In this document: piece after piece, positions 4,457-63,643 of the stretch | Layout: every line of letters begins with the position of its first letter | Position numbering within the stretch: position 1 is the first letter of the stretch | Origin: a virus | DNA: 64,000 bases | Virus record (IMG/VR): IMGVR_UViG_3300045988_115476 | Direction: 5' to 3' (one strand) | Translations under genes and position numbers: made by a program | Notes under the pieces: model-generated | The model's input: the letters and a program-made list of their open reading frames with translations, nothing else | The model's database searches: none | Told to the model about the DNA's origin: nothing

Positions 4457-4459
4457 ACG

Positions 4460-4894
4460 CTATTTGATTTTGATGATTACTTTCTCCTTTTTGTCCCAAG
4501 CAGTCTTCATCGTCTGAATCAACTTGTTGGTCCAAAATCTCGAATCGCTCACCCACCCCACTTTGTCGTTTTTGCCACAAAGGATGCACCCCTCTGTGTC
4601 TTTTGCCGAGTTGCCAGAATGAATACGAACCCCCTCAAATCCCTTTACGTTCAGTAGCAAGGGTAGCATCTTCTTGAACCGAGCGGAATAGGTGTAGGCG
4701 CATTCATACTCGCCACTCGGGATAGCAGTCTGGCCATACACCTTCTTTGCCTTGATTTCGGATAGAGGCATGTCACTTCTGAGACCCCTATCCGTGTCCT
4801 CCAAGGCATTACACCCAAACAACATTCCGTTCACATAGATGCGGCTTATAGTATATCCCGCCTTCTTCCAGGCTCTGTCAATGGTGATGATCAT
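4460..4894 (-). CDS. putative cell-wall hydrolase (endolysin candidate, DUF5675/YkuD-like motif)
   Basis: Located between the holin and the spanin. Carries the motif VRIHSGNSAKDTEGCILCG. Confidence 0.4.
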   Translation of the reverse strand: MIITIDRAWKKAGYTISRIYVNGMLFGCNALEDTDRGLRSDMPLSEIKAKKVYGQTAIPSGEYECAYTYSARFKKMLPLLLNVKGFEGVRIHSGNSAKDTEGCILCGKNDKVGWVSDSRFWTNKLIQTMKTAWDKKEKVIIKIK

Positions 4895-5425: not shown

Positions 5426-5860
5426 TTATAAGTTCAAGTCATAGAATGGCTTTTTGCCCGAAGAAAGATAGTTTTTGCACTCATCAAGAATCTTTTGCTC
5501 AAAATCGAGCTCCTTGATATGCGGAAACCATCGGCGTATTTTCTCACCATGACGTTTGACCATTTCTCCCCAAAGGACAACAAAATCCCAACAAGAGATG
5601 TTTGTGTCTTTGATTGAGTTATAATTGGAAATTGCGGCCTCTTTGCAATGAACGTTCTTGATAAGGCACAGGTGTAGCATGGCCATGTCTTCGTCATAGA
5701 TGCACTCGCCGAGTTCACTCTTCACCTCTCGAAGCGTCTCAAGAAACGCTTCGCCATTCATCCCTATTTCGCAACTGTCAGCCAAGATGCGTATCACATT
5801 GTTCTTTACCTGCTGATCATCACAGGCAACTACTTGCTCAAAAATCCTTTTCATAATCAC
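5426..5860 (-). CDS. hypothetical protein (144 aa)
   Basis: ORF in the leftward late operon. Confidence 0.5.
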   Translation of the reverse strand: MIMKRIFEQVVACDDQQVKNNVIRILADSCEIGMNGEAFLETLREVKSELGECIYDEDMAMLHLCLIKNVHCKEAAISNYNSIKDTNISCWDFVVLWGEMVKRHGEKIRRWFPHIKELDFEQKILDECKNYLSSGKKPFYDLNL

Positions 5861-5864
5861 TGAA

Positions 5865-6296
5865 TTATTCTGTTATCAATTTTTTCAGCTCAGCAAAATC
5901 ATCTGTCGTGAACTGAATACTTTTCTTGCTGCCGAACAAAATAGAGGTAACGATGTTGTCCGGCAGGTCTATCGTCAATGCGCCGTTACCCACCGTTCCG
6001 CTAAAGACGCCAAGGTCGTAAGGCATAGGCTCTAAAGACTTGAAGATCTGAACCATATCGTTGAATACGGTTTCAACATTCATGTTCCCTTCTTCGTCGG
6101 CAATAAACAAAGCCACATTGTCAATGTTTCGCGAAAGCATCTCCTTGTTCTTTGCAATGATGTTGTGTGCCGCACGCTTCATGTAAACGGACGGGACGGC
6201 CAGTTTTGGATTACCCTGCACCATATCGTCAATTCTCGAATCTGCCCAAAGCTCTATTGATTGCAGCAGCTTTTCTTTCAATTCTGAAATGTTCAT
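5865..6296 (-). CDS. hypothetical protein (143 aa)
   Basis: ORF in the leftward late operon; its stop abuts the next gene. Confidence 0.5.
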   Translation of the reverse strand: MNISELKEKLLQSIELWADSRIDDMVQGNPKLAVPSVYMKRAAHNIIAKNKEMLSRNIDNVALFIADEEGNMNVETVFNDMVQIFKSLEPMPYDLGVFSGTVGNGALTIDLPDNIVTSILFGSKKSIQFTTDDFAELKKLITE

Positions 6297-19700: not shown

Positions 19701-21584
19701 GAACCCAAACTCTCCGCTAAACTTGTGCAACTTCAAGTAGAAATAGGGATGAATGTAATTCCCACTATCGTCCTTGATGTCGTTATCCTTTGCGTCAAAG
19801 GCCACATCGGCAATCTCACCGAACAGTTGGCCAAGGCCGTCGCTCTGTATAACGTCGTTACGGATTCCGTTGATTGTAGGCTTTATATCATCAAAAGAGA
19901 CGCTGCCCTGATGGGGCTTGCCTACCTTGTACAAGTTGGCGAATTGATAAAACTCACCGCTTCCATCCGGCTTCTCGTACTTACCATTCTCTGCCAAATA
20001 GAATCTGTTAGCGCCACCACTTTTTCTGTAGATACTCGGCATAAGGTTTTGGGACGGAAAAACAAACTTTCTATCCTTAATTTCCACCTTCGATGCTGTT
20101 TCCTCGCCAGTCAATCCATACGGCACAAAACCGTTGTAGTATTCCATCCCGCATATAGCAGGAACGGCCTTGGATATGTCGGCAAAGATTATCCCGCCAT
20201 CGTCATACCTAAACGACATTCCTTCGGAATAGAACCAAAGTTCCCCGTCACTCTTTTGGCATGAAACGCCTATCGAGCCTTGAATGGATGCGACGATGTT
20301 GAGGTAGCCACCCGTATGATCACCGTCTGACACTTGTTCGCGCTCTTTTACATAATACGAAACAAGATGAACAAACTTGTAGTCGCCAGGAACGGGGCAA
20401 ACAAAATTGTCGTCAAGTGAAACTTTCTCTGTTCTTGTCCCGTCAACAACTATCGAATATGACGATTCGACAATAGCGAAAAGGTTGTCACATTGATGCT
20501 TTTCGTAACGAACTTCACACCGTATTCCAGACAATTTGATGCGAGTGCCGGCATCACAATGTCCGATATGCCACTTTTGGGAAAATTCTTTAAAACACGG
20601 TTGGTAATTGCTCCACACTTCGCTGACATAGACATCAATGGTGTTGTCATACTGGCCATCCTTGATCTTGCAAAAGGTAAAAGTCCTGCCAATCGGGTTG
20701 TCCAGAGCATATAACTTTTCGAGATTAACCGTTACGTCCTCTTTGTCAATATTCGCAGTATTGAATACGGCAAGTCCAAACTCTCCATCATTGGGGTAGT
20801 ATTCCGGTATATTGTCGGAAGAGCCACGGCCCGTGATCATATCAACAATCTTCGTGTTTGCATTCTCACGAGATATGGATAACAATGCGTCATTGCGACC
20901 GTACCTCACAATGTCTTCATCGTTATCCGTCAAATCATGCTGGACTTTACCAACATGGCACACCGTTCCTACCCAATAGTAATCCAACTCAAACTCGGTA
21001 TTGATGAGCTGAATCACATTGGTGATATATTCGTCCTCAAACGATATTTCCTTCACATCGTCCGTACCATATCCGTTATCGACAACAACATAATACCCCC
21101 TATCCCCTTGGGCCTTTTGTGGAAAGTAAAGGCCACAGTAAGCAAGGGCACTATTGATTCTGCTGACAAACTCACGAATAGTACCTCCAAACTGAAATTT
21201 GGTCTGATTGCTAACATAACGGTCTCCTCCATGGGTGTCCTTGTCATAGTCTGACACGACATCAAAGAACAATGTATTGTCAAGAATCTCCCTTCGTGAC
21301 GTAAAGACAATCTCATGCTTGTACATCATGGATTCATTGTCCTTGCTCGAAGAAGGAATGGACGTTACGAAGAATCGCTCGCCAAGAAACTCTACAAATT
21401 CATCATACGTCCAATCATCATCAAGGGGACGCTCATAGTAGATGGTTGCCGTAAGCGTAGGCGCGCCACCCATACGCTTACCACTATAAGTATATGAGCC
21501 GACAATCGCCTCCTCGCCTTTGGCAGGAAAGCTCACGGCATTTCCATCCACAAGCCTTTGAATATGTAACGCGCTCGCCTTCAT
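16731..21584 (-). CDS. tail tip / baseplate-hub-like structural protein (1617 aa)
   Basis: Uninterrupted ORF between the portal and the fibre gene, with a beta-rich repetitive architecture. Confidence 0.6.
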   Translation of the reverse strand: MKASALHIQRLVDGNAVSFPAKGEEAIVGSYTYSGKRMGGAPTLTATIYYERPLDDDWTYDEFVEFLGERFFVTSIPSSSKDNESMMYKHEIVFTSRREILDNTLFFDVVSDYDKDTHGGDRYVSNQTKFQFGGTIREFVSRINSALAYCGLYFPQKAQGDRGYYVVVDNGYGTDDVKEISFEDEYITNVIQLINTEFELDYYWVGTVCHVGKVQHDLTDNDEDIVRYGRNDALLSISRENANTKIVDMITGRGSSDNIPEYYPNDGEFGLAVFNTANIDKEDVTVNLEKLYALDNPIGRTFTFCKIKDGQYDNTIDVYVSEVWSNYQPCFKEFSQKWHIGHCDAGTRIKLSGIRCEVRYEKHQCDNLFAIVESSYSIVVDGTRTEKVSLDDNFVCPVPGDYKFVHLVSYYVKEREQVSDGDHTGGYLNIVASIQGSIGVSCQKSDGELWFYSEGMSFRYDDGGIIFADISKAVPAICGMEYYNGFVPYGLTGEETASKVEIKDRKFVFPSQNLMPSIYRKSGGANRFYLAENGKYEKPDGSGEFYQFANLYKVGKPHQGSVSFDDIKPTINGIRNDVIQSDGLGQLFGEIADVAFDAKDNDIKDDSGNYIHPYFYLKLHKFSGEFGFDLFASALASDTAKINLVDSIGCPACSFEIQTHKSSDGKKFYNPVSTDAIGNLKKIDGKETGDYILSPDEAASDTYNQDSRKHELWIALKKDASTLGIIMPNAANNFKPKKGEKFVITGIKAPYSLVTAAEKRLDDALIKYMFENNEDQFNINVKFSRVFLQENPSFASRLNENSKIKVEYNGKQYELFVSSFTVKAENSVLMEVDVELVKSLEITQSDVKNIVDSVKGEVVRPLANLAGGGSNINMSITDKAYLSKLHDDSTKYRLTVGEFQSNGRATVKGDVIVSDSGTFVSGAEGHGTRLGNDGMCETDIVKLRGYLGTPNFVDGFNGNGFKLWIDDSKLANLTLDRLTVRQTMVIFELLIEKIRSVGGQICVSAANGKIKSVKEYEDNYVIEFEQENTFVAHDLVRCQTFTGKNLKSYWAEVASVTKDGVIIPKSEFTNSLPAVGDECVLMGNTINTKRQNLVLISATEDGNPRIDVVNGVNHKGFDKSLRARLGNLDGINDDWFPASNQPNGDGLYCDNAFLKGTFLLETGEDVKTRFEITDGKIESAVEGVRQDLMPDRGYLSNPSFNEGFDKWGTQNETVFFLVGNKWIYANNNVLSKRGDSAIVVKDMGRTVVHIKNKYICQKNKNLAKKPDMPTNADGTKEAQPVYLAFFYRCATAGKLTVTFEGVDKTGFADFESFNIEQEVGVTDGYQQFTCEGIWNGTGDFKLSFTGEIYLYMLVLSTDKVDSLTYKYRTLFEQSDKLINIAAQNFDKDGNVLADSGIMVKPTGVGIYSQGSDGKFALIGVEVKGEDGKSSIKLFADNIQLEGYATINGNFKIDKEGNMAAKNGRYEGTVVANSGKFIGAIGSPYNNVGAAQTQWPSVDTGMNVMVSDTKRAEAGLVLPAYKEIDGVECDVINATATDTFINIPSNNDPTQCLLYRNTHITSVKLGGNFCRVRLKAFVQPGADGCSWTILNTSDFELATDADLKYIYAKSVLNPSVLN

Positions 21585-32125: not shown

Positions 32126-32346
32126 TAGACTTTCTTAGGGCCAACACTTGGTGCTCGCAGGAAGAATACAAATGGGCAATGACCGTTCCGCAGGTGAGGC
32201 TCGCAAGTATGGACTTTACCCATGTGGAATACATCTCGGACAAAGAGACGAAGAGAAATGGTCGCGGCAAACGAAATAATGAGACCGTAATAGGGAGCGC
32301 AGACGACCTAAAGAGGCTCAACGATCTTGGCTTGCCGATTATATAA
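32017..32346 (+). promoter_or_regulatory. -1 programmed frameshift site and gpGT-like extension
   Basis: T TTT TTC at 32017-32023 in the zero frame (gaT TTT TTC). The -1 frame is open from 31993 to TAA 32344-32346. Confidence 0.4.
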
Positions 32347-32365
32347 ACTACTAAACATTCAAGTT

Positions 32366-35300
32366 ATGAGCGATGCAATAGGAAGCGAGCTTTTTATCAG
32401 CAAAGAAGCACTCAACGCTATTGAGCGTGCTGACAAGAGGTTGCAGAACATACAAGAGACCGCAAGGGCAATGGGAACTACTGTGAACAATGCCTTTACG
32501 GCCATGTCTGGCGGTGCTAATATGTTCGCCGACAACCTTGACAAAATCATTCAGAAGATGAGGGCTATCGGCACGAATGCCACCACTGCAGGCCAAAACC
32601 TCAACAACTCCTTCTCCAACATAGGAAATAGTGCAAGGGATATGGGTGGAAGCGTCACCAAAGCCTCCGAGGTCATTGATGGCATGCGGCAGAAGCTGTC
32701 AAGCATGAGTGGCATGGGCACGGGAGGCATCCAGCAGGCCGCATTGGCCTTAGAGAGGCTTCAAAAATCCATGCAGAACAAGAGTGGCATGAACATTGCC
32801 AACCTCAAGGAGGAAATTACTGCGATCAACAATATTCTCAAGGACAAATCATACAACCTTACGTCCTCTGAGCAAGACGAACTTGTGAAGCGCAAAAAGC
32901 TCTTGCAGGATGAGCTCAAGTATCAGGAGCAGATGTATCAGGAGCGGACTGTGGCCTACCAAAAGGCCCTTGACCGAATGGCAAGTGCGCAACAGTCATA
33001 CGAGAACAAGCAGCGAAAGAATGCTAACGAACGTGCGCAGAAAAATCGTGAGAAGAACTATGCCACAAACACGACGTACCAGGGTGCGCTCAAATTCTCT
33101 GATAGCGCAAATACGCTCAATAGGCAAGCCCTTGCAGTAAAATACCTTGAAGAGGCAAAGCACAAGTTGTCGAAGACGGATTCTGACTACACTACGAAGC
33201 TGAACGCACTCAATGCGGCCATAGAGAAGCACAATGCCGTGCTCAATGCGGCAAAGCCATTGACTGAGGCAGCGCAGGCGCGTCAGGCGAAGGAGCTTGC
33301 ACAGAAATATCGTGAGAAGAACTATGCCAAAAACACGACGTATCAAGGCGCAATAGATTTTTCTAATAACGCAAGGACGCTCAACAGACATGCGCAGGCA
33401 ATAGAGTATCTGAGAGCGGCCCGCATGAAACTATCTACGACGGATCAGGACTATAGCAAGAAGCTCATCGCCTTGAATACCACCATCGAAAAGCACGCGA
33501 AGGTGCTTCGTGATGCGGGTGTGTCCGTGCAGGGCCTCGGAAAGAAGTATTCTTACCTTGACAGGTACATATCCCAACTCATTCAACGCACGGCGGTACT
33601 CTTCACTTTCAACTCGGCCAAGGACTTCATACGACAGATTGCCGAGGTGAGGGGTCAGATGGAGATGTCGCAACGTTCCCTGGAATCTATGTTGCAGAAC
33701 AAGGTGCAGGCCGATGAGATATTCAACAAGACCGTACAACTGGCCGTCAAGTCGCCGTTCCGCATCAAAGACTTGGTGAATTACACCAAGCAGCTTGCGG
33801 CATACCGTATTGAGAACGACAAACTCTATGACACCACCAAGCGGCTCGCCGACGTTTCTGCGGGCCTTGGCGTGGACATGAGCCGCCTTATCCTCGCCTA
33901 CGGTCAGGTCAAGGCTGCGGCCTATCTTCGTGGCTCTGAGGTTCGCCAATTCACGGAGGCGGGCATCAATATGTATGGAGAGTTACAGGCCCTCTTCAAG
34001 GAACGAGACAATGCTGACTATACGACGGCACAAATCGTCGATATGATCTCGAAGAGAATGATCAAGTTCAAGGACGTGGAGCAGGTGTTCCAGCGGCTCA
34101 CGGACAAGGGTGGAATGTTCTACGAAATGCAGGAACGGCAGTCGCAGACCCTTTGGGGTATGATCCAAAAGGCGGGCGACGCCTTCGATGTAATGCTCAA
34201 CGAAATTGGCAAGAGTAATGAAGGCGTTTTGAAGGGCACGGTCGCCTCGGCCATTGAATTGTTGAAGCATTGGAAGAGCATTGCGTCGGTAGCCAAGACG
34301 GCAATCGCTTTCTTTTTGGCTATCAAGACACACTCTATTGTCATTGCAATGTATCATAGTAAAATCGTGACTATGCTTCGTTCTGAACAATTGATTTCAA
34401 AACTGATTCATGGACAATGGCGTGCTATAGGCTCGTCCATATCGAATGTCGTAAAGAGTACCGGGTTGCTAAAGTCGTTAGGTGTCGGCCTGGTTGGAAC
34501 GGCTGCTGCATTTGGTCTTGAGGCAATTATTAGACATTACCAAAAAGTTGCCGACATGGAACGAGAGATTGCACAGGTAAACAGAGAGTATGCGGAATCG
34601 TTCGACAAACTCCAAGAAATACGGAAGAGTTTTGGAACGGAAGACGACAACAAGAGCATTGAGGACAAAAAGAAGGCTTTTCAGGAGCTTGTCACTTTGA
34701 TGCAGAATGCGAACTTTGACATAAAGATCGACATTAAGGGCTTGTCGAAAGAAGAGCTTCAAAAGCAATTCAATGTGGCAGAGGGATTGTATCAAAATTT
34801 CATTGAGACAACCCGAATGATAGATTACCGCTTCAAGGAAGATTCCTCCATCAAAGAGGATTTGGACAAATACTCTGCACAATATACGAAGATCATTTCC
34901 AAGACGACCGACTTGCGCTCCGTTCTTGACAATATTGCTGTCGAATACAAGAACCTCAGCAAGGATGCACAGAAATATTACGACATAGCCGCAAAGCCAC
35001 GACAAGACAATGAGGATGAAATGGCGTATCTTGAGAGAACAAGGAACGCCATGCAGAAAATAGCTGATATTACCGCAAGAAATCAAAGAGCGGGAACGGC
35101 CCTGCCTGGATTTGTCAACGAAATAAACGATAATGTAAGACAGCTCAACGAAGAGATTGCCAAACTGGATCAACAGAAAAATTCGCTGCTCAAGTTTGAT
35201 AAAAACACAAAAACTTGGTCTGGTAGCCTTGAACCTATACGTAAGGAATTGGAACGGACGTTCAACGATGCGGTAGATAAAGGTATCAGAAAAGGATTGA

Positions 35301-38300
35301 CGAAAAGTGCGGCTGTCAAAGAGGCGAAAATGACTGTCAAGGCATCAATCGACGACCGTTTTACGAAGAACGAGATCGACCAACTTGGCGCTCAATTATT
35401 ATATAAGCCCTTTGGCATCAATGTCAATATCGACAAGGCGAACGTAGAGGAGGAGGTGTCATGGATTGACGACTACCTTGAGCAATACTTCAAGAACAAG
35501 AAGTACAAAATCAATGTAGAGGTTAACCAACTTGATGCATACGCCGAAGGATTCAAGAGCCTCCTTGAGCGTGGAGACAAAGCGAAGGAGCAGTACGAAG
35601 CAGCAAAGAAATTTCTTGAACGTTTCGGCAAAATGAAGAGTACGCGTAAAGGTTGGATTCTTGCGGACCAAGACATACGGACAATCATGGGATCTTCTTT
35701 ACCACTTGCGCAGAAGTATGTTCACAGGGACAAAGTAAAAGCGCAGGCACAGGAGCTCCTGCGCATATACAAAGACGAGGCTATTAGCCTTGGTGTTGAT
35801 CCAGACGAGAAAGAAAACAAAAAGAGGGGCAAAGAAAGGGAGAGACAGCAAAGAAGGGAACAGAAAGAGCAACGAGACATTCTTTCTGAGCGCATCAGCC
35901 TGCTCTCTGACATGAATAGCAAATACAATGAGCTGTTGAGGAACGAAAGCAAGGAGGACGCACTCCTTCACACTCGCAAGTACTTCAAAGAGGCGGCAGA
36001 GAACGTGGGATGGACTACGGACGACATCATGCCGGACGACAAGGCCGTGGCCGACCGCATCAGGAAGATTGGTCGCATGTTCAAAGAGTTCACGAAGCGG
36101 GGTGACGCATTCCGCAAGGCGGCTGACATCGAAATGAACGGAAGTCTCAAAGTTTACGAAAAGCTGAGAGACCAAGTTTCCACAGATATTGATGAGGCAT
36201 TCGCTGGCCTTGACCTCTACAAGAGGCTCAAAGACAATAACGTCAGCGAGACCGTTATCAGAAAGTCGTTCGGAGACCTTGCCCACTCATTTGATGATCT
36301 GCGCGACATGGTGAATCGTGTCTTCAACCAATACACCTCTGCCTACTTCGACAAAATGTATGGAAGCGACCCCAACAAATGGTCGCAGGAAGTACTAAAG
36401 GAGTATGAGGAGGCTATCAAAGATACGGGCAAGGCCATGCAGAAATACTTCGGAGAGGAGCAATACAAGCAGTACAAGGAGGCTATGGCCCGGATTACCA
36501 AGCAGCAGAACCAACAGACCATTGATGACTTCAACAGGCTGACCAGCGACTACAAAACGAAGCTGACGGAGCAACTGGAGCTCGACAAATGGTATGTGGA
36601 GGAACGTCGCAAGATATACGACGACGAGACGTTGAAGAATAATCCCGAATTACAGAAGGAAGATCTCGACAACCTCAAGAAACAGTACGACAAGAAGACT
36701 ACGGACAACTCCTGGAAGTCGTTCCAAGAAAGCGATATGTATATACGCCTCTTCGAGAACCTTGATCATGCTTCAACCGCCATGCTGACGGCCATGCGGG
36801 ACAAACTACAGTCCATCAAAGAGAGCCTCAAAGACCTCGATCCTGCACAAATCAAGCAAATTGTGCAACAAATGGAGAAGCTGGACGAAAGGATTCTTGC
36901 CAACAACCTCAATAAGAACCCGTTCAAAAACCTTGTGTCAAACATCAAGGAGTACGTCAAGTATGCAAAGGAACGTGAGCAGATTGAGAAACGATACACG
37001 GCCTACCTCAAAATGCAGAACCACCTCGAAACACAGAAGCGGGAAGAGGAGCTACTCGTGGCCGAGGCCGACGAAAAGTACAAAAACGACGAAAAGGTTC
37101 ATGGCGCGGATTCTGAGGAGGCTAAGTCGGCCAAGGCGGTGCTTGAGGTAAGAAAGCAGAACCTTGCCGTTATTTCCCACCAACTCAAAGAACAGGAGAA
37201 GATAACGAAAGAGGAGGCCAAGCAACTGAACAATGGCGAGAAGCTGAAGAAGGCCCTCATGGAGCAATCACAGAAGATTGGAGATTCCTTCGGAGATGCG
37301 GCATCGGCCATCAATGCGTCATTTGAGATGCTGGAAGACTGGGGCATCGACGCCGAAATCCCCGACGAAATGACGGAGATAGTGGGCGGCTTCGAAAAGA
37401 TTGATTCTTCCCTGCACCAGATAGCATCTGGCAAGTATATCACCGGCGCGGTATCGCTCATCGGCGGTATCGGCAAGTCCCTCGGCGGCATCTTCGGATG
37501 GGGCACGAAGGACAAGAAGCTGGAGAAGAAGATTGCCAAACACCAAAGGGCCATCGAAAGGCTCTCGGAGGCTTATGAAAAGCTAAAAGAGAGCATGGAT
37601 GATGCGTGGAGCATGGAGGACTTGAAAAAGTACAACGACGAGATGGTGAAGAACATCGAATTGCAGAACGCCAACCTTCGCTCCATGATTGCTGCGGAAA
37701 AGGACAAGAAAAAAACCGATAGCAACAAAATCCACGAGTACGAAAAGCAGCTTGAAGAGAACATGAAGGTGCTCAAGGAGATGAAGGAAAGCCTCATCGA
37801 GCAACTGGGTGGATTCGGAAGCGAGGCCAACTACAAGGCGGCGGCGCAAGCCTTCGCAGACGCATGGTTTGACGCTTTCAAAGAAGGCAGCAATGCACTC
37901 GACGCACTCAACGAGAAGTTTGAAGAGTACATTCAGAACCTTATCAAGAAGCAGCTCATGCTCCGGGTGGCACAGAAATACTTGAAGCCATTGCTTGAGA
38001 TGGTTGACAAGTCGCTGGAAGAAGGTAGCGACGGTGGCATGAAGCTCACGGACCAGGAACTTGCCGCAATCAACAAGCTTGGCGATTCAACAATGAAGCA
38101 GTTGGAAGAAGCATTCAAGAACGTGACGGATTCGATCGGTTTTGTTAGTAAGGCGAAAGACAACCTTTCTGGCCTCCAGCAGGGCATACAAGCCGTCACG
38201 GAGACTACGGCAAAATCGCTTGAGGGATTGCTGGGAAGTATGAGATACTACCTCGCAACACAACAGGCCGACGTGAGAATCATACGTGACACCCTCCTCG

Positions 38301-38470
38301 AAAGGCTCGGGACGATTGCTCAGCAGCAGGCAGGCGGTTCGTCAAACATCATGGTGGATCTCCTGCAACAGCAAGTGGAGTATATGAAGAGGCTATCGTC
38401 AAACTTTGAAAGCGTCATGAAGGCGGGACACTCCAAAGGTGGATATGGTCTGCGGGTATTCCTCAACTAA
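32366..38470 (+). CDS. tape measure protein (about 2034 aa from ATG 32366)
   Basis: Very long helical ORF after the chaperone pair, with a hydrophobic central segment and an internal 88-codon tandem duplication. Confidence 0.8.
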   Translation: MSDAIGSELFISKEALNAIERADKRLQNIQETARAMGTTVNNAFTAMSGGANMFADNLDKIIQKMRAIGTNATTAGQNLNNSFSNIGNSARDMGGSVTKASEVIDGMRQKLSSMSGMGTGGIQQAALALERLQKSMQNKSGMNIANLKEEITAINNILKDKSYNLTSSEQDELVKRKKLLQDELKYQEQMYQERTVAYQKALDRMASAQQSYENKQRKNANERAQKNREKNYATNTTYQGALKFSDSANTLNRQALAVKYLEEAKHKLSKTDSDYTTKLNALNAAIEKHNAVLNAAKPLTEAAQARQAKELAQKYREKNYAKNTTYQGAIDFSNNARTLNRHAQAIEYLRAARMKLSTTDQDYSKKLIALNTTIEKHAKVLRDAGVSVQGLGKKYSYLDRYISQLIQRTAVLFTFNSAKDFIRQIAEVRGQMEMSQRSLESMLQNKVQADEIFNKTVQLAVKSPFRIKDLVNYTKQLAAYRIENDKLYDTTKRLADVSAGLGVDMSRLILAYGQVKAAAYLRGSEVRQFTEAGINMYGELQALFKERDNADYTTAQIVDMISKRMIKFKDVEQVFQRLTDKGGMFYEMQERQSQTLWGMIQKAGDAFDVMLNEIGKSNEGVLKGTVASAIELLKHWKSIASVAKTAIAFFLAIKTHSIVIAMYHSKIVTMLRSEQLISKLIHGQWRAIGSSISNVVKSTGLLKSLGVGLVGTAAAFGLEAIIRHYQKVADMEREIAQVNREYAESFDKLQEIRKSFGTEDDNKSIEDKKKAFQELVTLMQNANFDIKIDIKGLSKEELQKQFNVAEGLYQNFIETTRMIDYRFKEDSSIKEDLDKYSAQYTKIISKTTDLRSVLDNIAVEYKNLSKDAQKYYDIAAKPRQDNEDEMAYLERTRNAMQKIADITARNQRAGTALPGFVNEINDNVRQLNEEIAKLDQQKNSLLKFDKNTKTWSGSLEPIRKELERTFNDAVDKGIRKGLTKSAAVKEAKMTVKASIDDRFTKNEIDQLGAQLLYKPFGINVNIDKANVEEEVSWIDDYLEQYFKNKKYKINVEVNQLDAYAEGFKSLLERGDKAKEQYEAAKKFLERFGKMKSTRKGWILADQDIRTIMGSSLPLAQKYVHRDKVKAQAQELLRIYKDEAISLGVDPDEKENKKRGKERERQQRREQKEQRDILSERISLLSDMNSKYNELLRNESKEDALLHTRKYFKEAAENVGWTTDDIMPDDKAVADRIRKIGRMFKEFTKRGDAFRKAADIEMNGSLKVYEKLRDQVSTDIDEAFAGLDLYKRLKDNNVSETVIRKSFGDLAHSFDDLRDMVNRVFNQYTSAYFDKMYGSDPNKWSQEVLKEYEEAIKDTGKAMQKYFGEEQYKQYKEAMARITKQQNQQTIDDFNRLTSDYKTKLTEQLELDKWYVEERRKIYDDETLKNNPELQKEDLDNLKKQYDKKTTDNSWKSFQESDMYIRLFENLDHASTAMLTAMRDKLQSIKESLKDLDPAQIKQIVQQMEKLDERILANNLNKNPFKNLVSNIKEYVKYAKEREQIEKRYTAYLKMQNHLETQKREEELLVAEADEKYKNDEKVHGADSEEAKSAKAVLEVRKQNLAVISHQLKEQEKITKEEAKQLNNGEKLKKALMEQSQKIGDSFGDAASAINASFEMLEDWGIDAEIPDEMTEIVGGFEKIDSSLHQIASGKYITGAVSLIGGIGKSLGGIFGWGTKDKKLEKKIAKHQRAIERLSEAYEKLKESMDDAWSMEDLKKYNDEMVKNIELQNANLRSMIAAEKDKKKTDSNKIHEYEKQLEENMKVLKEMKESLIEQLGGFGSEANYKAAAQAFADAWFDAFKEGSNALDALNEKFEEYIQNLIKKQLMLRVAQKYLKPLLEMVDKSLEEGSDGGMKLTDQELAAINKLGDSTMKQLEEAFKNVTDSIGFVSKAKDNLSGLQQGIQAVTETTAKSLEGLLGSMRYYLATQQADVRIIRDTLLERLGTIAQQQAGGSSNIMVDLLQQQVEYMKRLSSNFESVMKAGHSKGGYGLRVFLN

Positions 38471-47308: not shown

Positions 47309-49171
47309 ATGACTGACAAAGAGAAGAATTTTGCCATATTAAGCAAACTATATGAGTTTGCGGATGAGATTTGGGAAAATGTGGAGGATAAACGGGCCGG
47401 AGTTTTCACGGCCTCAGAGATAGCGCGATCCATCAAATCATGTAAGGATGTAATAGTCTGTTTTGGGGATTTAGGTGACGAGCAAATAACGGTCGAGGTG
47501 GATTCTTTTAGTTGCTCTATCCCGAAAAGCCGTATCTTTGAGTATATCCGCGTAGTTGAACGTTTGGCCGGTGTTAGTAGCAATAAGGCGAAGACGTTTG
47601 TGTACGAGGAGGAGAAGGGGGACGTATTAGGCAGCTGTAAGTTTGAATTTACGAAGGACTTTGCCGATCTGGTGCATTTTATAGCAAAAGACGAATTGCG
47701 GCCTTCACTTATGAACGTTGCCCTTAACGTCGATTTGTCGTGCCTGGTTGCGTCAGATGGCAAAGTACTAAAAGCCTATCCCGTGCGTATTATCGAAACG
47801 TCAGGGGATATGCACGACTTCCAAATAGATGGCGCATTGTTTTCCAAGATTTGCAAAAGATTGGGCGCCAGGGAAACGTATATTGCGGAGTGTACAAATT
47901 ACGGCGGTTCTGGCTGCATAGAAAAATGCGTGTTTAGCTGTGGCAGCCTATCTATTACGACGAAATATAGTGGGCGCTATCTTAACGTTAAAGGCGTCAT
48001 AAGGGACGTTAGGGAGGCCGGGCGGATGATCCTTTGCCCTGATGCCTGGAAGGACGCAACCAAGTTCTTTAAAAGCTCAAAGGGCCAAACGGTCAAAATA
48101 ACTGCAAATGTGGGTGATGACTTCGCCGTGTTGTCTAACGAGGATGGCAGCGAGTGTGTTATTAAGACGTTGCAGAATCCCGCCCAAAATGTGGAAAGCA
48201 CACATAAAGCGGATTCTTTGCGCCTGTTTGGAAATGTGTGCGAAATATTCTTTAATGGCCAAAATTGTCCCCTCACCTTCATTAGTGGTGATGCCTCGAT
48301 GGGATTAGTCATGCCATGTTGTAGCGATCAGTATTACGAGTTAGGCGAAAGCGAGCGGCACAATCCAATAGAGCTTGCAAAAGCGGCCCGTATCGACAAG
48401 AAAGCGGCAAAGGTGGATAGTAGTCGGCCCGCAAAGGAAAAGGCCCGCAAAACGCCTCCTACGGCCTCATGTGGGAAAGATATGGCAAGCGCGGCCCGCG
48501 GGAAAAGATTCAGCTTCGAAGCCGTCGGCGTGAATGTTGGCGATGTGCTGTCGTTTATTGATGGCACGGAAGTGGTGGCCGTCGCTGGCAATAAGGTGGA
48601 GTTTTGCGGCGAAGTATTTACTTTGTCCGGATTCTGCAAGGAGTTCATGCCCGACGACAAACGGACAAAAAGCAACTCGTACCGCGGTTGTAACTTCTTC
48701 TTCCTGGATGGTGTGTGCCTTGGGAAGATATTCCGTGAAGTTATGGAGGCAGCACCAGAATACGTGCCCACTATCGACGAGGGGGAAGATGCTACCTTTG
48801 AGCCTCAACGGGCGGACGGGATCCAGGAAACGGGCCATATTAGCCATGAGGCGAATAACTTTGAGCACAAAGAATGCGAAGAAAAGCCGCATAAGGGCCA
48901 AACGGGCCGCTTTGACGGCAAAATAACTCTTCACCCTACAGTTGTCCCACTTATTGTGAGAAAACGCAATACAGGCCGTTTTTGGCCGTTATTTGGACGT
49001 GTGGGGGCGATGGAGGCCACCGCGGCCCGTCGTGTGCGTGCAAAGGTATTGCGCCGTCGTGCTCCCACATTTGTGGCTGGCAGGGTTAGGCCACCACCAT
49101 ATTACGCGCATAACGAGGGGCGGATGAATAGTTTTAGGTTTTACAACAATTTCAAAATATCAAAAGAATGA
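47309..49171 (+). CDS. 620-aa protein with a sliding-clamp (DnaN)-like segment
   Basis: AKDELRPSLMNVALNVDLSCLVASDGKVLKAYPV resembles the DnaN ...TRYYLNGV...VATDGHRLA motif. The C-terminus is low complexity. Confidence 0.35.
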   Translation: MTDKEKNFAILSKLYEFADEIWENVEDKRAGVFTASEIARSIKSCKDVIVCFGDLGDEQITVEVDSFSCSIPKSRIFEYIRVVERLAGVSSNKAKTFVYEEEKGDVLGSCKFEFTKDFADLVHFIAKDELRPSLMNVALNVDLSCLVASDGKVLKAYPVRIIETSGDMHDFQIDGALFSKICKRLGARETYIAECTNYGGSGCIEKCVFSCGSLSITTKYSGRYLNVKGVIRDVREAGRMILCPDAWKDATKFFKSSKGQTVKITANVGDDFAVLSNEDGSECVIKTLQNPAQNVESTHKADSLRLFGNVCEIFFNGQNCPLTFISGDASMGLVMPCCSDQYYELGESERHNPIELAKAARIDKKAAKVDSSRPAKEKARKTPPTASCGKDMASAARGKRFSFEAVGVNVGDVLSFIDGTEVVAVAGNKVEFCGEVFTLSGFCKEFMPDDKRTKSNSYRGCNFFFLDGVCLGKIFREVMEAAPEYVPTIDEGEDATFEPQRADGIQETGHISHEANNFEHKECEEKPHKGQTGRFDGKITLHPTVVPLIVRKRNTGRFWPLFGRVGAMEATAARRVRAKVLRRRAPTFVAGRVRPPPYYAHNEGRMNSFRFYNNFKISKE

Positions 49172-50010: not shown

Positions 50011-50880
50011 ATGAAAGTAATTATCTACAGTCGTGTTTCGACCGACAAACAAACGTTTGCTCAGCAGGAGCGGACGGTCAACGAATGGTTGTCTTGCCAC
50101 GGCCTGACTGCCACCGACGAAGTGAGTGAGGCGGGTGTCAGCGGTAAGGTGTCGTACAAGTCGCGAAACCTTGGCCGCGTCGTCCTCCCCATGCTTGAAC
50201 GTGGCGACATTCTCATCGTGTCTGAGGTGAGCCGTATTGGCCGTTCTATGTGCGATATTAACAAGTTCGTGAATGACGAGCTCAAACCAAGGGGCGTGCG
50301 CCTGGTGATCGTGCAAATGGGCCTTGATATAGATTGTGCCAACTTGAAGGCCATCGACGAGATGTTGCTGTTCTCCTTCTCCTTTGCGGCTCAGCTCGAA
50401 AGGGAATTGATTCAGGAGCGCACACAGTCGGCCATCGAGGTCTTGAAGCGGAAGCTAAAGGATGACGGCCAGTTTGTGTCGAAGAAAGGCCGGGTGTGTC
50501 ACGCCCTTGGGCGCCCGAAGGAGACTGACACCACGGTGGCCACTACAGAATCGGCCATCAATCGGAAGGAGGAGGCCCGCCAAAAGCCCTACAATAAGGC
50601 CATCTGGCAGGTGTTGAAGGCATGTACGGAGAATTTCTCGGTCCTGGGATCTGACCGGTTTGACAAAGGGGTAGAGATACTCAACGGTATGGGCGTGAAG
50701 TCGGCCACGGGCAAGGAGTTTTCCCGTGCCAGGCTTCGTAGTGCTTACTATAACCTTCGGTCAGTATTCACGGACTATCGGCCCATCAGGAAGGATAGCG
50801 CCGTCTATCGCAATATGATAGAGCAGGGCGAGGATTCGCGTACTGGTTGGCGTGAATATAGGCAAGAAAATGGGATTTAG
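50011..50880 (+). CDS. serine recombinase (resolvase/invertase family)
   Basis: N-terminal VIIYSRVSTDKQ (catalytic Ser), ...VSEVSRIGRS and ...AQLERELIQERT. Confidence 0.75.
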   Translation: MKVIIYSRVSTDKQTFAQQERTVNEWLSCHGLTATDEVSEAGVSGKVSYKSRNLGRVVLPMLERGDILIVSEVSRIGRSMCDINKFVNDELKPRGVRLVIVQMGLDIDCANLKAIDEMLLFSFSFAAQLERELIQERTQSAIEVLKRKLKDDGQFVSKKGRVCHALGRPKETDTTVATTESAINRKEEARQKPYNKAIWQVLKACTENFSVLGSDRFDKGVEILNGMGVKSATGKEFSRARLRSAYYNLRSVFTDYRPIRKDSAVYRNMIEQGEDSRTGWREYRQENGI

Positions 50881-52793: not shown

Positions 52794-52826
52794 GCTGGCT
52801 CACATGGTTGTGGGCCAGCTTTTTTT
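52794..52826 (+). terminator. strong intrinsic terminator
   Basis: GCTGGCTCAC pairs with GTGGGCCAGC, followed by T7. Confidence 0.7.
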
Positions 52827-53061
52827 GTGTCAACCAAAATATATGATCAATAATTGTCAAAAGTTAAAGTCTGGTCAAAATCCGCTTGGTTACACGAATG
52901 GAAGAAAAGCAGTAGCCGATCACGTTGAAAGGGGGGATGTAACGAAACGTGACACCCCTATCCCGAGCCAACATGGGGTGTTAGTGAATCAGTCCGTGAC
53001 CTATATCACAGAGAGCGGTGTTTATGCCCTAATCTTTGGCAGTAAGCAGGTTGTGTCGTAG
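52804..53061 (+). pseudogene. truncated Bro-N (antirepressor N-terminal) fragment
   Basis: LGYTNGRKAVADHV...ITESGVYALIFGSK, then an abrupt end. Its apparent ATG lies in the loop of the preceding terminator. Confidence 0.5.
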
Positions 53062-53117: not shown

Positions 53118-53125
53118 TATCTTTG
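53118..53125 (+). promoter_or_regulatory. Bacteroides-type -7 box
   Basis: TATCTTTG followed by CA. Confidence 0.5.
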
Positions 53126-53128
53126 CAT

Positions 53129-53342
53129 TGTCAACAAGATAATGGTAAGCCATTCCGTCCGAGCAGCGGTCTTTGCTCATTCGTTATGTGTGAGTATTTT
53201 GTACCCACACACGACCAAATACGGTCGCCTATACGTAAGATAAAAACGAAGCTCTTTCGGAGTGGACTACCATCTTGTTGACAGCGTATATGGCGACCGC
53301 TTTTTGTTTGCCTATAATTCTTCTAATTAGTCAACAAGATGG
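53129..53342 (+). ncRNA. structured leader / cis-regulatory RNA of the antirepressor gene
   Basis: TGTCAACAAGAT (53129-53140) and GTCAACAAGATGG (53330-53342, which contains the ATG) can each pair with CCATCTTGTTGACA (53270-53283). A terminator-like stem pairs 53222-53235 with 53285-53299 and is followed by CTTTTTG. Confidence 0.5.
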
Positions 53343-54136
53343 AAGAAATTAGAGTTATTAGTAAATCAACCTTTTTGGGTAGGGAGATTGATGTGTACGG
53401 AACGGCTTATGAACCTTTGTTCAAAGCGAAAGATGTTGCAGAATGGATAGAACTATCCAACGTCTCTGACATGGTAAACCGGATAGACTGCGAAGAGGTG
53501 ACTAAGTTCAACTTAGGCGGCTTACAGGGCGAGACGTGGTTTCTAACCGAGGACGGTTTGTACGAAGTACTGATGCAAAGCCGCAAGCCAATTGCCAAGC
53601 AATTCAAGAAAGGAGTGAAAACTATCCTAAGGCAAATCCGCAAGACGGGCCAGTACAATGCTTTCCAGCAGCCACAGGCAAGCCTCAACGAACGAATGAG
53701 CGCGAGCTTAACGTTCGCCGACTGGAGCGCAAAGTTCCTCAACCTGAACGATGCAAGCAAGCAGGGTATGGCAAAGCGTATTGGCAAAATGGTGGGCCTT
53801 GAAGACACCTTTCCAATGGCCGTGAATGCGGGCACGGAGAAGCCCGTGACGCACGCCTCCCGCGATCTTCTTCTTTCTCATGGTGTGGGAATATCCACAC
53901 AGGCTTTCAACAAGGTTTTGGAGATAAAGGGAATTGTCAAACAGGCCACACGCCCTGGACGTGGCGGGAAAGTGCATAAATGGATGGTATTGCAGCCCGC
54001 ATTTGACAAGTACGGACAAAACCAACAGCATCCCAACTACCAGCAGCAGACGCAGATACGATGGTATGATGCTACTTTTGCCGAGTTGCTTACCATTGTC
54101 GGCCTCAACAAACAAACGTCGCTCTCCATTCAATAG
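53339..54136 (+). CDS. Bro-N domain antirepressor-like protein
   Basis: FLGREIDVYGTAYEPLFKAKDVAEWIELSN...EDGLYEVLMQSRKPIAKQFKKGVKTILRQIRKTGQY. Confidence 0.7.
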   Translation: MEEIRVISKSTFLGREIDVYGTAYEPLFKAKDVAEWIELSNVSDMVNRIDCEEVTKFNLGGLQGETWFLTEDGLYEVLMQSRKPIAKQFKKGVKTILRQIRKTGQYNAFQQPQASLNERMSASLTFADWSAKFLNLNDASKQGMAKRIGKMVGLEDTFPMAVNAGTEKPVTHASRDLLLSHGVGISTQAFNKVLEIKGIVKQATRPGRGGKVHKWMVLQPAFDKYGQNQQHPNYQQQTQIRWYDATFAELLTIVGLNKQTSLSIQ

Positions 54137-56331: not shown

Positions 56332-57231
56332 ATGAAAAGAATGACAAGAAAAGAAGCTGCCGAGTATCTCGGCGTTTCAATCAGCACTATCTCCAACTAC
56401 ATGGCAGAGGGTGTTCTTGGTGGTTTCAAGGATCACAAAAACCTCATCTATGTGAATGCTGAGGACGTGGAGAAGTATGCAAAGCAATACCGCATGATTC
56501 CTGCCAGCGAGAAACTGCTCCAGGAGAAGCTTGATGAGTTGGAACGGTTGCGCAATGAGGCAAAAGAAGAGATTGCCGAGTTGCGGAAAGGATTCCTTGG
56601 CCCTACTTTGTCTCGTTTCAATCATCCAGCCATAGGATGGGCCATTATGGCCTTGAACAGGATTGTAGGAGACGTCCATATTCCGCGTAGAGAAGAAAGT
56701 GTGTTGCTTAGAGTGTTCGTAGGTGAAGATTTGGTCGATATTGCCGAAGAAAAAGGCGTGACGATAGAACGCATACGGCAGATAACAATCAGCGCCTGCC
56801 GACACCTCTGCGACAAAGAGCAAGAGTTAATGAAAGACTTAAAGAGCAATGCCAGGCTATTGAAGGAGAATGAGGCCCTTTGCCATGATGTAATCGTTCT
56901 CCAAGAATTTATCAAAAACATACCCGGCGTAAAATTTGAACGGGAGCTCCTTACGCCTCCTGCCTTGTTCTACAAGAAAATATCTAATTGTGGATTCAGC
57001 GTCCGAGTAACAAATAGTCTGACCTTCGGAGGTATTGAGACCGTAGGCGACATGATAACGAAATTCAACAGCTTTCAGCACATGTTGGACATGAGTGGTC
57101 TTGGCCGGGTAAACCTCCGTGAGATTGAAGCCTTCATGAAGGAGAACCATCTGGTGTTCCGAAGAAAAAACGAAGGCTACAAGGAGTACTTTGCCCGATT
57201 GACCAAATACGGAAAGTATAAGAAATGCTGA
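56332..57231 (+). CDS. composite transcription regulator: N-terminal HTH, sigma-70 region-4-like segment, RpoA alpha-CTD-like C-terminus
   Basis: MTRKEAAEYLGVSISTISNYM; ESVLLRVFVGEDLVDIAEEKGVTIERIRQITISACRHL; FSVRVTNSLTFGGIETVGDM...GLGRVNLREIEAFMKE. Confidence 0.55.
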   Translation: MKRMTRKEAAEYLGVSISTISNYMAEGVLGGFKDHKNLIYVNAEDVEKYAKQYRMIPASEKLLQEKLDELERLRNEAKEEIAELRKGFLGPTLSRFNHPAIGWAIMALNRIVGDVHIPRREESVLLRVFVGEDLVDIAEEKGVTIERIRQITISACRHLCDKEQELMKDLKSNARLLKENEALCHDVIVLQEFIKNIPGVKFERELLTPPALFYKKISNCGFSVRVTNSLTFGGIETVGDMITKFNSFQHMLDMSGLGRVNLREIEAFMKENHLVFRRKNEGYKEYFARLTKYGKYKKC

Positions 57232-58100: not shown

Positions 58101-58231
58101 AAGTAAGATTAGCAAAGAAACTTGCGCTCAGGCCGATGTGCAAACTGTCAACACGATGGATCATGCGGTACTTCAACAATGACGCGAGGTTTAACAAAGC
58201 GTTTAGGATGATTAAGCGAAAGCGCAAATGA
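58097..58231 (+). CDS. basic mini-ORF (44 aa)
   Basis: ATGA overlaps at both ends (58097-58100 and 58228-58231). Confidence 0.3.
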   Translation: MKVRLAKKLALRPMCKLSTRWIMRYFNNDARFNKAFRMIKRKRK

Positions 58232-62437: not shown

Positions 62438-63643
62438 CTAATCGGTCCTGCTTAGGGCCAAGTCGGCATTGAGCGCATTGATAACTTTCCTGTTGGCCTC
62501 ATCTATCTTTCGGTTGTCGAAATTGATGTATAGGTCAGTTGTCGTCGAATCCCATTCGCTATGGCCGAGGGCCTTTCCTATCACCTCCTTCGGAATGTCA
62601 AGGCTGGCCGCTATCGTGGCCCATGAACGCCTGGCCGTGTACCACACAATATCATCGTGCAATGGCTTCAACTGCTTCTTGATAAGTGCGCCCCTGCGAT
62701 TCTTCACCAATTCTACCTTTCCTATCCTCTTGATGTAGTCTCCAAGCCGTCGCTTGAAACTCGACAACTTTGTGCCATCATCCAGGAAACGAACAAGATG
62801 CTTCGTACCATGGTACTTGTTGATAATCTCCAGGGCCTCGGGCTCTACCTTGATGTCGTACAGACGGCCCGTCTTCTTGCGTCGATATACAATGCGTCCG
62901 TGCTTGATAGCATTCGCTGGCAGCTCAAGAAGGTCAGAAAGATTGATGCCGATAAGATAGAATCCGAGCAGGAACATGTCACGGTACTTCTCCATGAAAT
63001 CCTCTACCTCAATGTCTCTGTATTCGCGCATCTCCTCTATGGATAGGTACAGAAACTTTTGTCGTTCCGTCTTGATGGTGAACTTGCGGAACGGGTAATT
63101 CTTCGTTTCCTCGTTGTCTATGGCCCAGTTGAATACGGCCCGCATGTTGCGGAAGTCAATGGCAATTCCATTCATCTTGCGGCCACGCATGATTTCGTGT
63201 GCCAAGAAACCGTCAAGCCACCTACGGTCAATATCATCGATCAATGCCTTTTCGTCGTACATGACCAGCCGCTTTCTCGTAGTCTCATAGATACCACGGG
63301 TGCTTTCGTTGGTCTTTGTCTCCATAAACTCCTCGAAGTAGTGGACGAGTGATTGTCCCGACTGAGGCTCCTCGCCGTTAATGATAGCTTTGATATTGCG
63401 CCTCATCAACTCGAAGGGTTCATTCAGGTGTTTCTCCATATATGCGTCTATGGAGGAATAGAGACTTGCAAGGCGTGCCGTCTTTGCCGTACTGTTTGGC
63501 GTACTGTTTGGAAACACGAGGCCCGAGAATTTTTCGCTACTCCTCATGCCAGTACTTACTTGGAATCTTTTCTTCTTGTAAGAAATAATGAAGTACACAC
63601 AATTCGTCTTTCCATCGACGTATGGCTTAATGCTCGTTATCAT
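62438..63643 (-). CDS. int: tyrosine integrase (Bacteroidota phage-integrase type)
   Basis: Has an N-terminal SAM-like domain and a catalytic region: ...RIVYRRKKTG..., YTARRSWATIAA, ALGHSEWDSTTTDLYINF. Confidence 0.85.
   Translation of the reverse strand: MITSIKPYVDGKTNCVYFIISYKKKRFQVSTGMRSSEKFSGLVFPNSTPNSTAKTARLASLYSSIDAYMEKHLNEPFELMRRNIKAIINGEEPQSGQSLVHYFEEFMETKTNESTRGIYETTRKRLVMYDEKALIDDIDRRWLDGFLAHEIMRGRKMNGIAIDFRNMRAVFNWAIDNEETKNYPFRKFTIKTERQKFLYLSIEEMREYRDIEVEDFMEKYRDMFLLGFYLIGINLSDLLELPANAIKHGRIVYRRKKTGRLYDIKVEPEALEIINKYHGTKHLVRFLDDGTKLSSFKRRLGDYIKRIGKVELVKNRRGALIKKQLKPLHDDIVWYTARRSWATIAASLDIPKEVIGKALGHSEWDSTTTDLYINFDNRKIDEANRKVINALNADLALSRTD

Follow-up and report, generated by a model that had tools for sequence, protein, structure and literature searches.

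A conserved three-copy RNA element at the start of a Bro-N antirepressor-family gene, with a layout like that of the c4 and CI immunity RNAs

Why should one short sequence stand three times in front of a phage gene, once in inverted orientation and once across the start codon itself? The locus that raises this question lies in the virus record IMGVR_UViG_3300045988_115476 of IMG/VR, of which a stretch of 64,000 nucleotides (nt), called the window below, was analysed. A 5'-terminal copy, c1 (TGTCAACAAGAT, also UGUCAACAAGAU; 53129-53140), is followed by an inverted copy, c2 (CCATCTTGTTGACA, also CCAUCUUGUUGACA; 53270-53283), and by a second direct copy, c3 (GTCAACAAGATGG, also GUCAACAAGAUGG; 53330-53342), which spans positions -9 to +4 of the translation-initiation region of ant, a gene of the Bro-N antirepressor family; these and all other features of the element are on the + strand. 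A sequence-only reading of the window had proposed that c2 pairs with either of two partners, c3 or c1, the latter being an anti-sequestor; it might equally be called a decoy for an antisense segment, c2, whose target is c3. Comparison with related loci indicates that the element is real and that it is an RNA element, conserved with unusually clear three-way covariation. The reading we favour, with moderate confidence, is that of a c4/CI-like antisense RNA module combined with a cis-acting switch, built from unrelated sequence, which would control ant at the RNA level.

Covariation and variability of the three copies

The gene downstream does belong to the family proposed for it: ant (53339-54136, + strand; 265 amino acids, aa) matches the Bro-N profile PF02498 (E-value 2e-14; 54.4 bits for a cut-off of 25.6) and, among the PHROG families, phrog_130, 'anti-repressor Ant' (3.9e-30). 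Its ATG at 53339 lies within c3. All coordinates and letters first given for the three copies are exact. A repeat search of the window found c1 complementary to 53272-53283 at 12/12 positions and c3 complementary to 53270-53282 at 13/13, and it reports a perfect 12-nt inverted repeat (c1/c2), a 16-nt inverted repeat at 94% (c2/c3) and an 11-nt direct repeat. The spacing of the latter, exactly 200 nt, had been singled out; it is exact in the window but incidental, since it varies from 199 to 213 nt in homologues. The folding calculation for the leader bears out the first pairing: the segment 53125-53360 reaches -76.6 kcal/mol (RNAfold, z=-5.5), with c1 paired to c2. Near-matches to the 13-mer number five in the window against 1.9 expected, an enrichment that is not significant. 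One sequence, GTCAACACGATGG at 58147-58159, is a single mismatch away from c3; it was considered as a second target of c2 and rejected, because it lies inside an open reading frame (ORF) of 44 aa, away from the start codon, and is probably due to chance. Taken by itself, the window makes a moderate case, suggestive rather than compelling; it is the comparison with homologues that takes the finding far beyond chance.

A blastn search of deposited phages gave two phages of Porphyromonas gingivalis, matching 53222-53344 with 78% identity; compared with the window, all three of their copies differ, and differ together. Pattern scans of viral and metagenome contigs brought the family to 22 distinct members, window included, which come from gut viral and metagenomic contigs and from P. 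gingivalis phages. At least nine types of seed, i.e. of the repeated sequence, are found: GTCAACAAGATGG, GCTACAAGATGG, GTTCACAGATGG, GCTCAAAGATGA, GTTCACAAGATGG, GCTAACAAGATGA/GG, GTCAACAGATGG, GTCAAGAAAATGG and GCTAAAGAAAATGG. Within each sequence of the family, c1 and c3 agree with each other and with the reverse complement of c2, insertions and deletions in the seed being coordinated in all three, and this three-way covariation spans 13 distinct seed combinations. Pairs were counted on an ungapped anchored concatenation (A3) for c1:c2 and c2:c3, and for the long helix described below also on a MAFFT alignment (A2). On A3, pairing amounts to 92.9% for c1:c2 (28-49% with the partner slid) and to 91.2% for c2:c3 (24-51%); both sides have changed in 7 of the 12 and 8 of the 14 pairs, respectively, and in neither case did any of 500 shuffles score as high. 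Pairing by c2 reaches the start codon and the base at +4 (ATGG with CCAT, ATGA with TCAT), where the pair covaries as well (CG:11, UA:2). Most one-sided changes result in G-U pairs that are valid on the + strand only, therefore the RNA is the + strand, the same as that of ant. On this sequence evidence, both pairings of c2 are shown to be under selection; the two alternatives seen in the window recur as covarying helices across the homologous loci.

Between close relatives it is the seeds that change. In the near-identical phages phage023a, from the P. gingivalis lysogen KCOM 2797, and phage024a, from F0570, 14 of 26 seed positions are different, and 7 of 198 positions elsewhere (p=1.3e-10); the corresponding figures are 8/27 and 15/202 for the window and the locus L004 (p=0.002), and 14/25 and 27/205 for L003 and L019 (p=4e-6). 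In these pairs, no other part of the element, which is otherwise conserved, varies as much as the seeds. Cognate c2:c3 pairings have a mean energy of -20.8 kcal/mol, as compared to -10.8 kcal/mol for non-cognate ones (GUCAACAAGAUGG vs GUUCACAGAUGG is an example of a non-cognate seed pair). The Porphyromonas phages carry two tandem paralogous cassettes each, the second ones (4060-4300 in L001, 7650-7900 in L009 and about 4213-4338 in L002) having their own seed; the tandem seeds differ and are orthogonal, cross-pairing reaching only -6.4 and -6.8 kcal/mol, and each cassette precedes a paralogue of a 111-aa protein without assigned function. Such hypervariability and orthogonality are not required by a riboregulator that acts purely in cis. 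In the second-cassette region of BK068104, short coding sequences are annotated on the minus strand (locus 4055-4228 and 4271-4510); they overlap the RNA element and the start of the paralogue, and look spurious.

Some members depart from the standard arrangement. A deletion variant in L009 (9311-9420) retains c1, c2 and the closing stem of its cassette 1 and has lost c3 together with the 5' part of the downstream gene. In L024 (1431-2063, minus strand), a gene for an HNH/NUMOD4 homing endonuclease has taken the place of ant after the first three codons (MEE...), with the cassette and c3 intact. A fourth partial copy, (A/G)GTTCGCAGAT, which is complementary to c2 with one G-U pair, is seen about 30 nt upstream of the promoter box in L010, L013, L015, L024 and L035. 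A pattern scan of species-representative genomes gave 0 cassettes, and none of the 45 Ant-relative loci that a protein-based scan found in such genomes, mostly of Firmicutes, has a cassette of families A, B or C or the three-copy pattern.

Promoter, terminator-like stem and alternative folds

The element begins at a promoter of the Bacteroidetes type: the -7 box TATCTTTG (53118-53125) fits TAnnTTTG, the consensus for sigma-ABfr (PMC7366714), and TAnnTT[T/A]G stands 3-4 nt before c1 in every homologue, as it does in the unrelated cassette families described in the next section. The position of c1 directly after the box, already noticed in the window, is hence a conserved one, and because of this the transcript is predicted to begin with c1, at about 53129. 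The 17 nt or so that follow, the c1 extension (53141-53157), can form a hairpin, H0 (53141-45:53150-54), for which RNAalifold gives compensatory changes (GC:9/AU:7; AU:11/GC:5), or else they can pair with the c2 side and thereby extend the c1:c2 helix. That helix had been described as 12 base pairs (bp) followed, after a 3-nt bulge, by 4 bp, all of which are present, but it really extends to about 24 bp and -36 kcal/mol. Its parts in the natural MAFFT alignment A2 are P1a, i.e. the 12 bp of c1:c2 (97% paired, 5 double-change pairs), P1b (GGUA:UACC, 53144-47:53268-71; 82.8% paired) and P1c, an extra 8 bp between CCAUUCCG (53150-57) and CGGAGUGG (53258-65), which is 94.9% paired with UA->CG in 4 sequences.

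Two conserved hairpins that are part of the minimum-free-energy (MFE) fold come next, HA (53161-65:53174-78; 93.5% paired) and HB (53187-53211; 80.6% paired, 4 pairs changed on both sides), and then a core hairpin of 78 nt (53222-53299), which alone has -28.9 kcal/mol (z=-3.5). The core is closed by stem T (CGGTCGCCTATACG at 53222-35 with CGTATATGGCGACCG at 53285-99; 14 bp with one bulge, followed by CTTTTTGTTTG), and its loop holds an A-rich stretch, a small hairpin, SH (53251-55:53259-63), and c2. A U tract, CUUUUUGUUUG (53300-53310), comes after T and makes an intrinsic-terminator-like end. The terminator-like stem recognised in the window is conserved in homologues: T is 99.6% paired in the 16 sequences of A2, with one CG->UA compensatory change and with UA->UG changes compatible with the + strand only; in a paralogous cassette, TATTACG/CGTAATA provides a compensatory inserted pair. 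The U tract is kept in all members of the family, and T-rich tracts also follow the closing stems of the unrelated cassettes. A G+C-rich stem directly before the U tract, as expected of an intrinsic terminator, is present in all 16 sequences of A2. A simple terminator scan of the window did not list stem T, because its loop is 49 nt long. Termination at this point would yield an RNA of about 180 nt.

Two folds are thus available to the leader, both supported by covariation. In fold I, c1:c2 with P1b and P1c makes up the helix of about 24 bp (supported on A2); in fold II, H0, SH and stem T form, and c2 is left single-stranded in the loop of T. MAFFT with RNAalifold over the whole element recovers T and H0, and misses the c1:c2 helix. 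It had been proposed that stem T interleaves with the first pairing as a pseudoknot or a mutually exclusive fold. The two do interleave, but c1:c2 competes with two local hairpins and not directly with T: an antiterminator sharing nucleotides with the terminator stem was not found, c1:c2 and T using different nucleotides. The competition between the folds is, in our model, one that runs via SH, H0 and topology. Since only 1 nt separates c2 from the 3' strand of T, T together with c2:c3 has the geometry of a classical H-type pseudoknot.

The duplex energies in the window are -35.9 kcal/mol for c1:c2 and -23.2 kcal/mol for c3:c2; over the 22 members they range from -28 to -41 and from -18 to -25 kcal/mol, respectively, and in 22/22 the MFE structure of the RNA from start site to U tract contains c1:c2. 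Fold I as a whole (-74.6 kcal/mol) and the T plus c2:c3 pseudoknot (-70 to -79 kcal/mol) are near-isoenergetic by a rough estimate, and such near-equality, crude as the estimate is, fits the need of a bistable switch.

A layout shared with unrelated cassettes and with known antisense RNAs

Is this arrangement peculiar to one family? In a set of 80 viral loci with relatives of Ant, the cassette family of the window was met only in loci from contigs already found. A scan for the three-copy pattern and nhmmer searches brought up at least three further cassettes before other Bro-N genes, with the same anatomy and without detectable sequence similarity to that of the window. Common to them are the -7 box 3-4 nt before c1, a closing stem with its T tract, a c2 located toward the 3' side of the closing-stem loop, 1-11 nt before the 3' strand of the stem, and a c3 at the Bro-N start codon. 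One is shared by L104, L105 and a second cassette in L007 (L007b). Another, which includes L042 and L048 and amounts to 21 of the 80 Ant loci, has bipartite seeds that covary in all three copies and are reminiscent of the a and b sites of phage P1. A further one is found in the P. gingivalis phage phage005a_ATCC49417 and in the faecal contig MT836351. Cassette families B and C are absent from deposited phage genomes. Different families may stand side by side: three tandem Bro-N genes occupy 5274-7292 of L007 (192 aa, 107 aa and truncated, 259 aa), of which the first and the third are each preceded by a three-copy cassette, the two cassettes being of different sequence families; what remains of a further cassette is seen at 5721-5884. 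In Bacteroides fragilis phage BF702P1 (L164, 560-700), a Bro-N-like gene has a leader with a hairpin of 16 bp, and the 10 nt of its loop, UGUUUGGCGG, are complementary to the 5' leader (CCGCCAACA); a copy at the start codon was looked for in this locus and not found, so that it was not counted as a cassette and may be a two-site variant.

The closest parallel outside these phages is c4, from the immI operon of the coliphages P1 and P7, a stable, processed RNA of about 77 nt (RNase P) that acts in trans as an immunity factor. In the deposited P1 genome the annotated order is the P1c4 promoter, putative a1, b1, C4 (77 nt, 48343-48419), a2, b2, icd and ant1. The window has the same succession on a single strand, i.e. 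promoter (-7 box at 53118), upstream copy of the target (c1 at 53129), antisense core of nearly the same size as that of c4 (77-78 nt; 53222-53299) and downstream copy at the translation start of the antirepressor gene or operon (c3, 53330-42; ant, 53339). In both, the antisense seed is single-stranded and lies beside the 3' strand of a long closing stem, near a small UUCG-type hairpin. Differences between seeds define phage specificity in P1 and P7, whose heteroimmunity is based on c4 (PMC12197685). The sequences are unrelated: at the gathering score, Rfam found neither C4 (RF01695) nor c4-a1b1 (RF03163), both of clan CL00128, in the 64-kb window, while on P1, taken as a positive control, it gave 68.8 bits for C4, 51 bits for c4-a1b1 and 35 bits for isrK. 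With a shared layout and no Rfam match, the element has to be described as c4-like in layout and not as a detectable member of the c4 family. In the source paper of the Rfam models, c4 and c4-a1b1 are recorded from Proteobacteria and phages of these only (PMC2864571), whereas the host here belongs to Bacteroidota. Other differences are that the seed of the window's family is contiguous instead of split into a and b, that the upstream copy is predicted to open the transcript and can join the antisense segment in a helix of about 24 bp, that the core ends in an intrinsic-terminator-like U tract instead of an RNase P/processed end, and that the target is the start-codon region of ant, without Shine-Dalgarno sequence, instead of the ribosome-binding site of icd. 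The A residues at -3 and -6 of this A-rich, Shine-Dalgarno-less initiation region lie within c3, consistent with the translation signals reported in PMC7366714. In P1 (L036; 256-262 and 424-430), the a1 and a2 sites (TTGACAG) and the a' segment of C4 (CUGUCAA) resemble the seed of the window (TGTCAAC/GTTGACA), which we regard as a coincidence. The one Rfam hit, to RNA-OUT (the antisense RNA of IS10, RF00240), was rejected: at 27.5 bits, for a gathering score of 41, it is on the minus strand, corresponds to the c2/c3 hairpin read backwards and has no transposase nearby.

Other systems share parts of the design. The CI RNA of the satellite phage P4 pairs with seqA upstream and seqC downstream (PMC4825925); it is an immunity RNA from the leader of the operon that it controls, with complementary sites on both sides, as in the window's element (c1:c2 and c2:c3, both covarying), and its outcomes include premature termination. 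It differs in that P4 controls replication genes and not an antirepressor, that CI is made by processing, and that CI is a member of the C4 structural family, to which the element has no match. The proposed module would also resemble IsrK of the Salmonella prophage Gifsy-1, where read-through of a terminator makes the difference between a short RNA and an mRNA and the former acts in trans on alternative helices of the latter; however, IsrK activates translation of its target, is Hfq-associated and proteobacterial, and the Rfam model isrK has no match in the window. The sar RNA of P22 blocks ant translation (PMC12197685), and is likewise a small RNA directed against initiation on an antirepressor mRNA, but it is made from the opposite strand, overlaps ant and has neither the three-copy arrangement nor an upstream decoy. 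Attenuators and riboswitch expression platforms also have alternative folds, a terminator hairpin with its U tract, and a start-codon sequestor with an anti-sequestor; in the element, by contrast, c1:c2 shares no nucleotides with the terminator stem, and the paired segments are hypervariable, which is atypical of expression platforms. No aptamer or leader peptide was identified, and no Rfam riboswitch class matches in the window. Literature searches returned no description of such an RNA in phages of Bacteroidota. The element is a new form of the known c4/CI-type principle, with unrelated sequence and in a different phylum.

Action in cis, in trans or on DNA, and what the element may mean

How such a module would work can be pictured as follows. 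The sigma-ABfr promoter (-7 box, 53118-25) would start the transcript at c1. In fold I, c1 and its extension would pair with c2 and its extension over about 24 bp, leaving c3 free and ant translated. In fold II, with H0, SH and T formed, c2 would be displayed single-stranded in the T loop, and T with the U tract could terminate transcription to give the RNA of about 180 nt. Pairing of c2 with c3 (-9 to +4) would block initiation, either on the same molecule, as an H-type pseudoknot stacked on T, or on another one; because c2 is displayed in a stable hairpin and the seed is hypervariable, the terminated or processed RNA would most likely act in trans as well, with c1 and c3 as its targets in transcripts of its own phage or of an incoming one. 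Such action in trans would keep ant off in a seed-specific manner, providing an immunity specificity like that which separates P1 from P7. Control would cover translation and probably also read-through of the antirepressor gene. Where transcription starts and ends, whether the RNA is processed, in which direction ant is regulated and that the RNA acts in trans are inferences from sequence. The anti-sequestor, sequestor and terminator logic put forward in the sequence-only reading remains a fair description, with both pairings covarying and T conserved, and what it missed is the c4/CI layout and the hypervariability of the seeds.

That reading amounts to a riboregulator of the 5' untranslated region acting purely in cis, in which every pairing is intramolecular and some cue (a protein, temperature, a ligand, RNase processing or the speed of transcription) flips the switch. 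It would account for the presence of all three sites on one transcript, for two alternative cis folds that both covary, for the ideal H-type geometry of T plus c2:c3 with its 1-nt junction, and for the long extension of c1:c2, which has no counterpart in c3 and makes sense only as an intramolecular helix. We nevertheless hold it to be unlikely, if well short of negligible: it gives no need for seeds that are hypervariable among near-identical phages or that are orthogonal where cassettes stand in tandem, neither an aptamer-like conserved pocket nor an Rfam riboswitch match was found, and the known systems with the same layout (P1 c4, P4 CI, IsrK) all act in trans too. Repeated sites that covary between heteroimmune phages are typical of immunity regions, and the copies could in principle be DNA operators that are bound by a sequence-specific protein (such as a repressor or a regulator of Ant) and follow its specificity, RNA pairing being incidental; the position of c1 next to the promoter and that of c3 where the gene begins would suit such a role. 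But differences between copies are mostly G-U-compatible on the + strand, c1 and c2 have complementary extensions that are absent from c3, a conserved hairpin with a U tract beside it always has c2 in its loop, the bipartite seeds of L042 and L048 have a non-complementary spacer in c2 only, and a mixture of direct and inverted orientations at 140-nt and 60-nt spacing is unlike known operators, all of which makes operators very improbable. Hardly credible at all, and the least probable of these explanations, is that the repeats are traces of DNA rearrangement, either an inverton bounded by the c1/c2 or c2/c3 repeats and served by the invertase gene at 50011-50880, or an insertion of about 200 bp with an 11-bp target-site duplication (c1 and c3). 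Perfect inverted repeats of 12-13 bp, an 11-bp direct repeat and a resolvase/DNA-invertase gene 2.3 kb upstream might suggest it, but 36/36 family loci, window included, are collinear with every segment in the same orientation, so that both orientations, as expected for an inverton, were not seen among them, and neither was an empty site. Moreover, the repeats covary as RNA helices with wobble pairs, are tied to a promoter and a start codon and not to arbitrary targets, and belong to a layout that recurs in unrelated sequences.

Several points weigh against the antisense module with its cis switch, which we still prefer. The antirepressor function of ant is a matter of family annotation alone, and the gene regulated in the Porphyromonas phages would be that of the 111-aa protein without known function, not ant. 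c1 is always the thermodynamically better partner of c2, so that the default in cis would be 'on', and an RNA released with c1 still attached might hide its own c2. Action in trans would then need 5' processing or kinetic partitioning, and no internal promoter for a short RNA is evident. Rfam scans of 801 nt and 231 nt gave no match to C4, c4-a1b1 or isrK even at E<=10. One c3 mismatch, in L004, is a wobble pair on the minus strand only. Finally, stem T shows little covariation, and its conservation is subject to ascertainment bias, because the pattern used to search for homologues lay inside T.

The surroundings of the element tell something of its history and of its host. An ORF just upstream (52804-53061, + strand; 85 aa) matches PHROG anti-repressor families and positions 23-79 of the 96 of PF02498 (E=1.7e-7); since the match is limited to this part of the profile, it is a truncated Bro-N gene, as had been proposed. 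This remnant is outside the RNA element and marks a recombination scar upstream of the cassette. Inside and upstream of it, GTGTCAACCAAAAT (52827-40) resembles c1 and c3, and ATGGAAGAAA (52898-52907) repeats the opening 10 nt of ant exactly but runs into a stop after 5 codons; these vestiges (52827-52907) suggest an earlier copy of ant destroyed by recombination. The window, part of an 82-kb metagenome scaffold, also has an integrase gene (62438-63643), two DNA methyltransferase genes and the resolvase/DNA-invertase gene mentioned above (50011-50880; PF00239, 1.3e-24; phrog_125), and it encodes a 620-aa protein with relatives only in phages of Bacteroides and Phocaeicola (LoVEphage, PV4-TP1, BI-TP1). 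It is most likely a temperate Bacteroidales phage, the host being deduced from the type of promoter and the phage relatives. A 299-aa protein (56332-57231) combines HTH_17, a sigma-70 region 4 and a segment resembling the C-terminal domain of the RNA polymerase alpha subunit, an unusual mix for a phage regulator. Three ORFs are very large: 9811-16719 (minus strand, 2302 aa), 16731-21584 (minus strand, 1617 aa) and 32327-38470 (+ strand, 2047 aa). A scan for tRNA genes found none in the window.

A broader idea can be advanced only tentatively, with less confidence than the module itself: temperate phages of Bacteroidota may use a programmable, self-addressed RNA code for their antirepressors. 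The design would run from a 5'-terminal decoy copy to an antisense segment in a terminator hairpin and to a start-codon copy; it would exist in at least four families unrelated in sequence, convergent or diverged beyond recognition, with a seed of about 10 nt setting immunity specificity. The switch would be bistable and self-reinforcing, in that the released RNA captures the 5' end of new transcripts and drives them into the terminating, sequestering fold.

Control of lysis and lysogeny in Bacteroidales and Porphyromonas phages is little studied ground, and early expression of an anti-repressor has been reported on induction of LoVE-type Bacteroidales prophages (preprint 10.64898/2026.06.25.734096). 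If the module does gate the antirepressor, it would offer a concrete switch, open to mutation, by which prophages of dominant gut and oral bacteria are induced, and the c4/CI principle would be a general one that recurs in a phylum with different promoters and without initiation based on Shine-Dalgarno sequences. Being short and swappable, the seed might also find use in the engineering of Bacteroides, as an orthogonal part for RNA regulation. If the reading is true, the seed would be a predictor, readable from sequence, of mutual immunity between phages, and the phages of the gut and oral virome would fall into heteroimmunity groups according to it.

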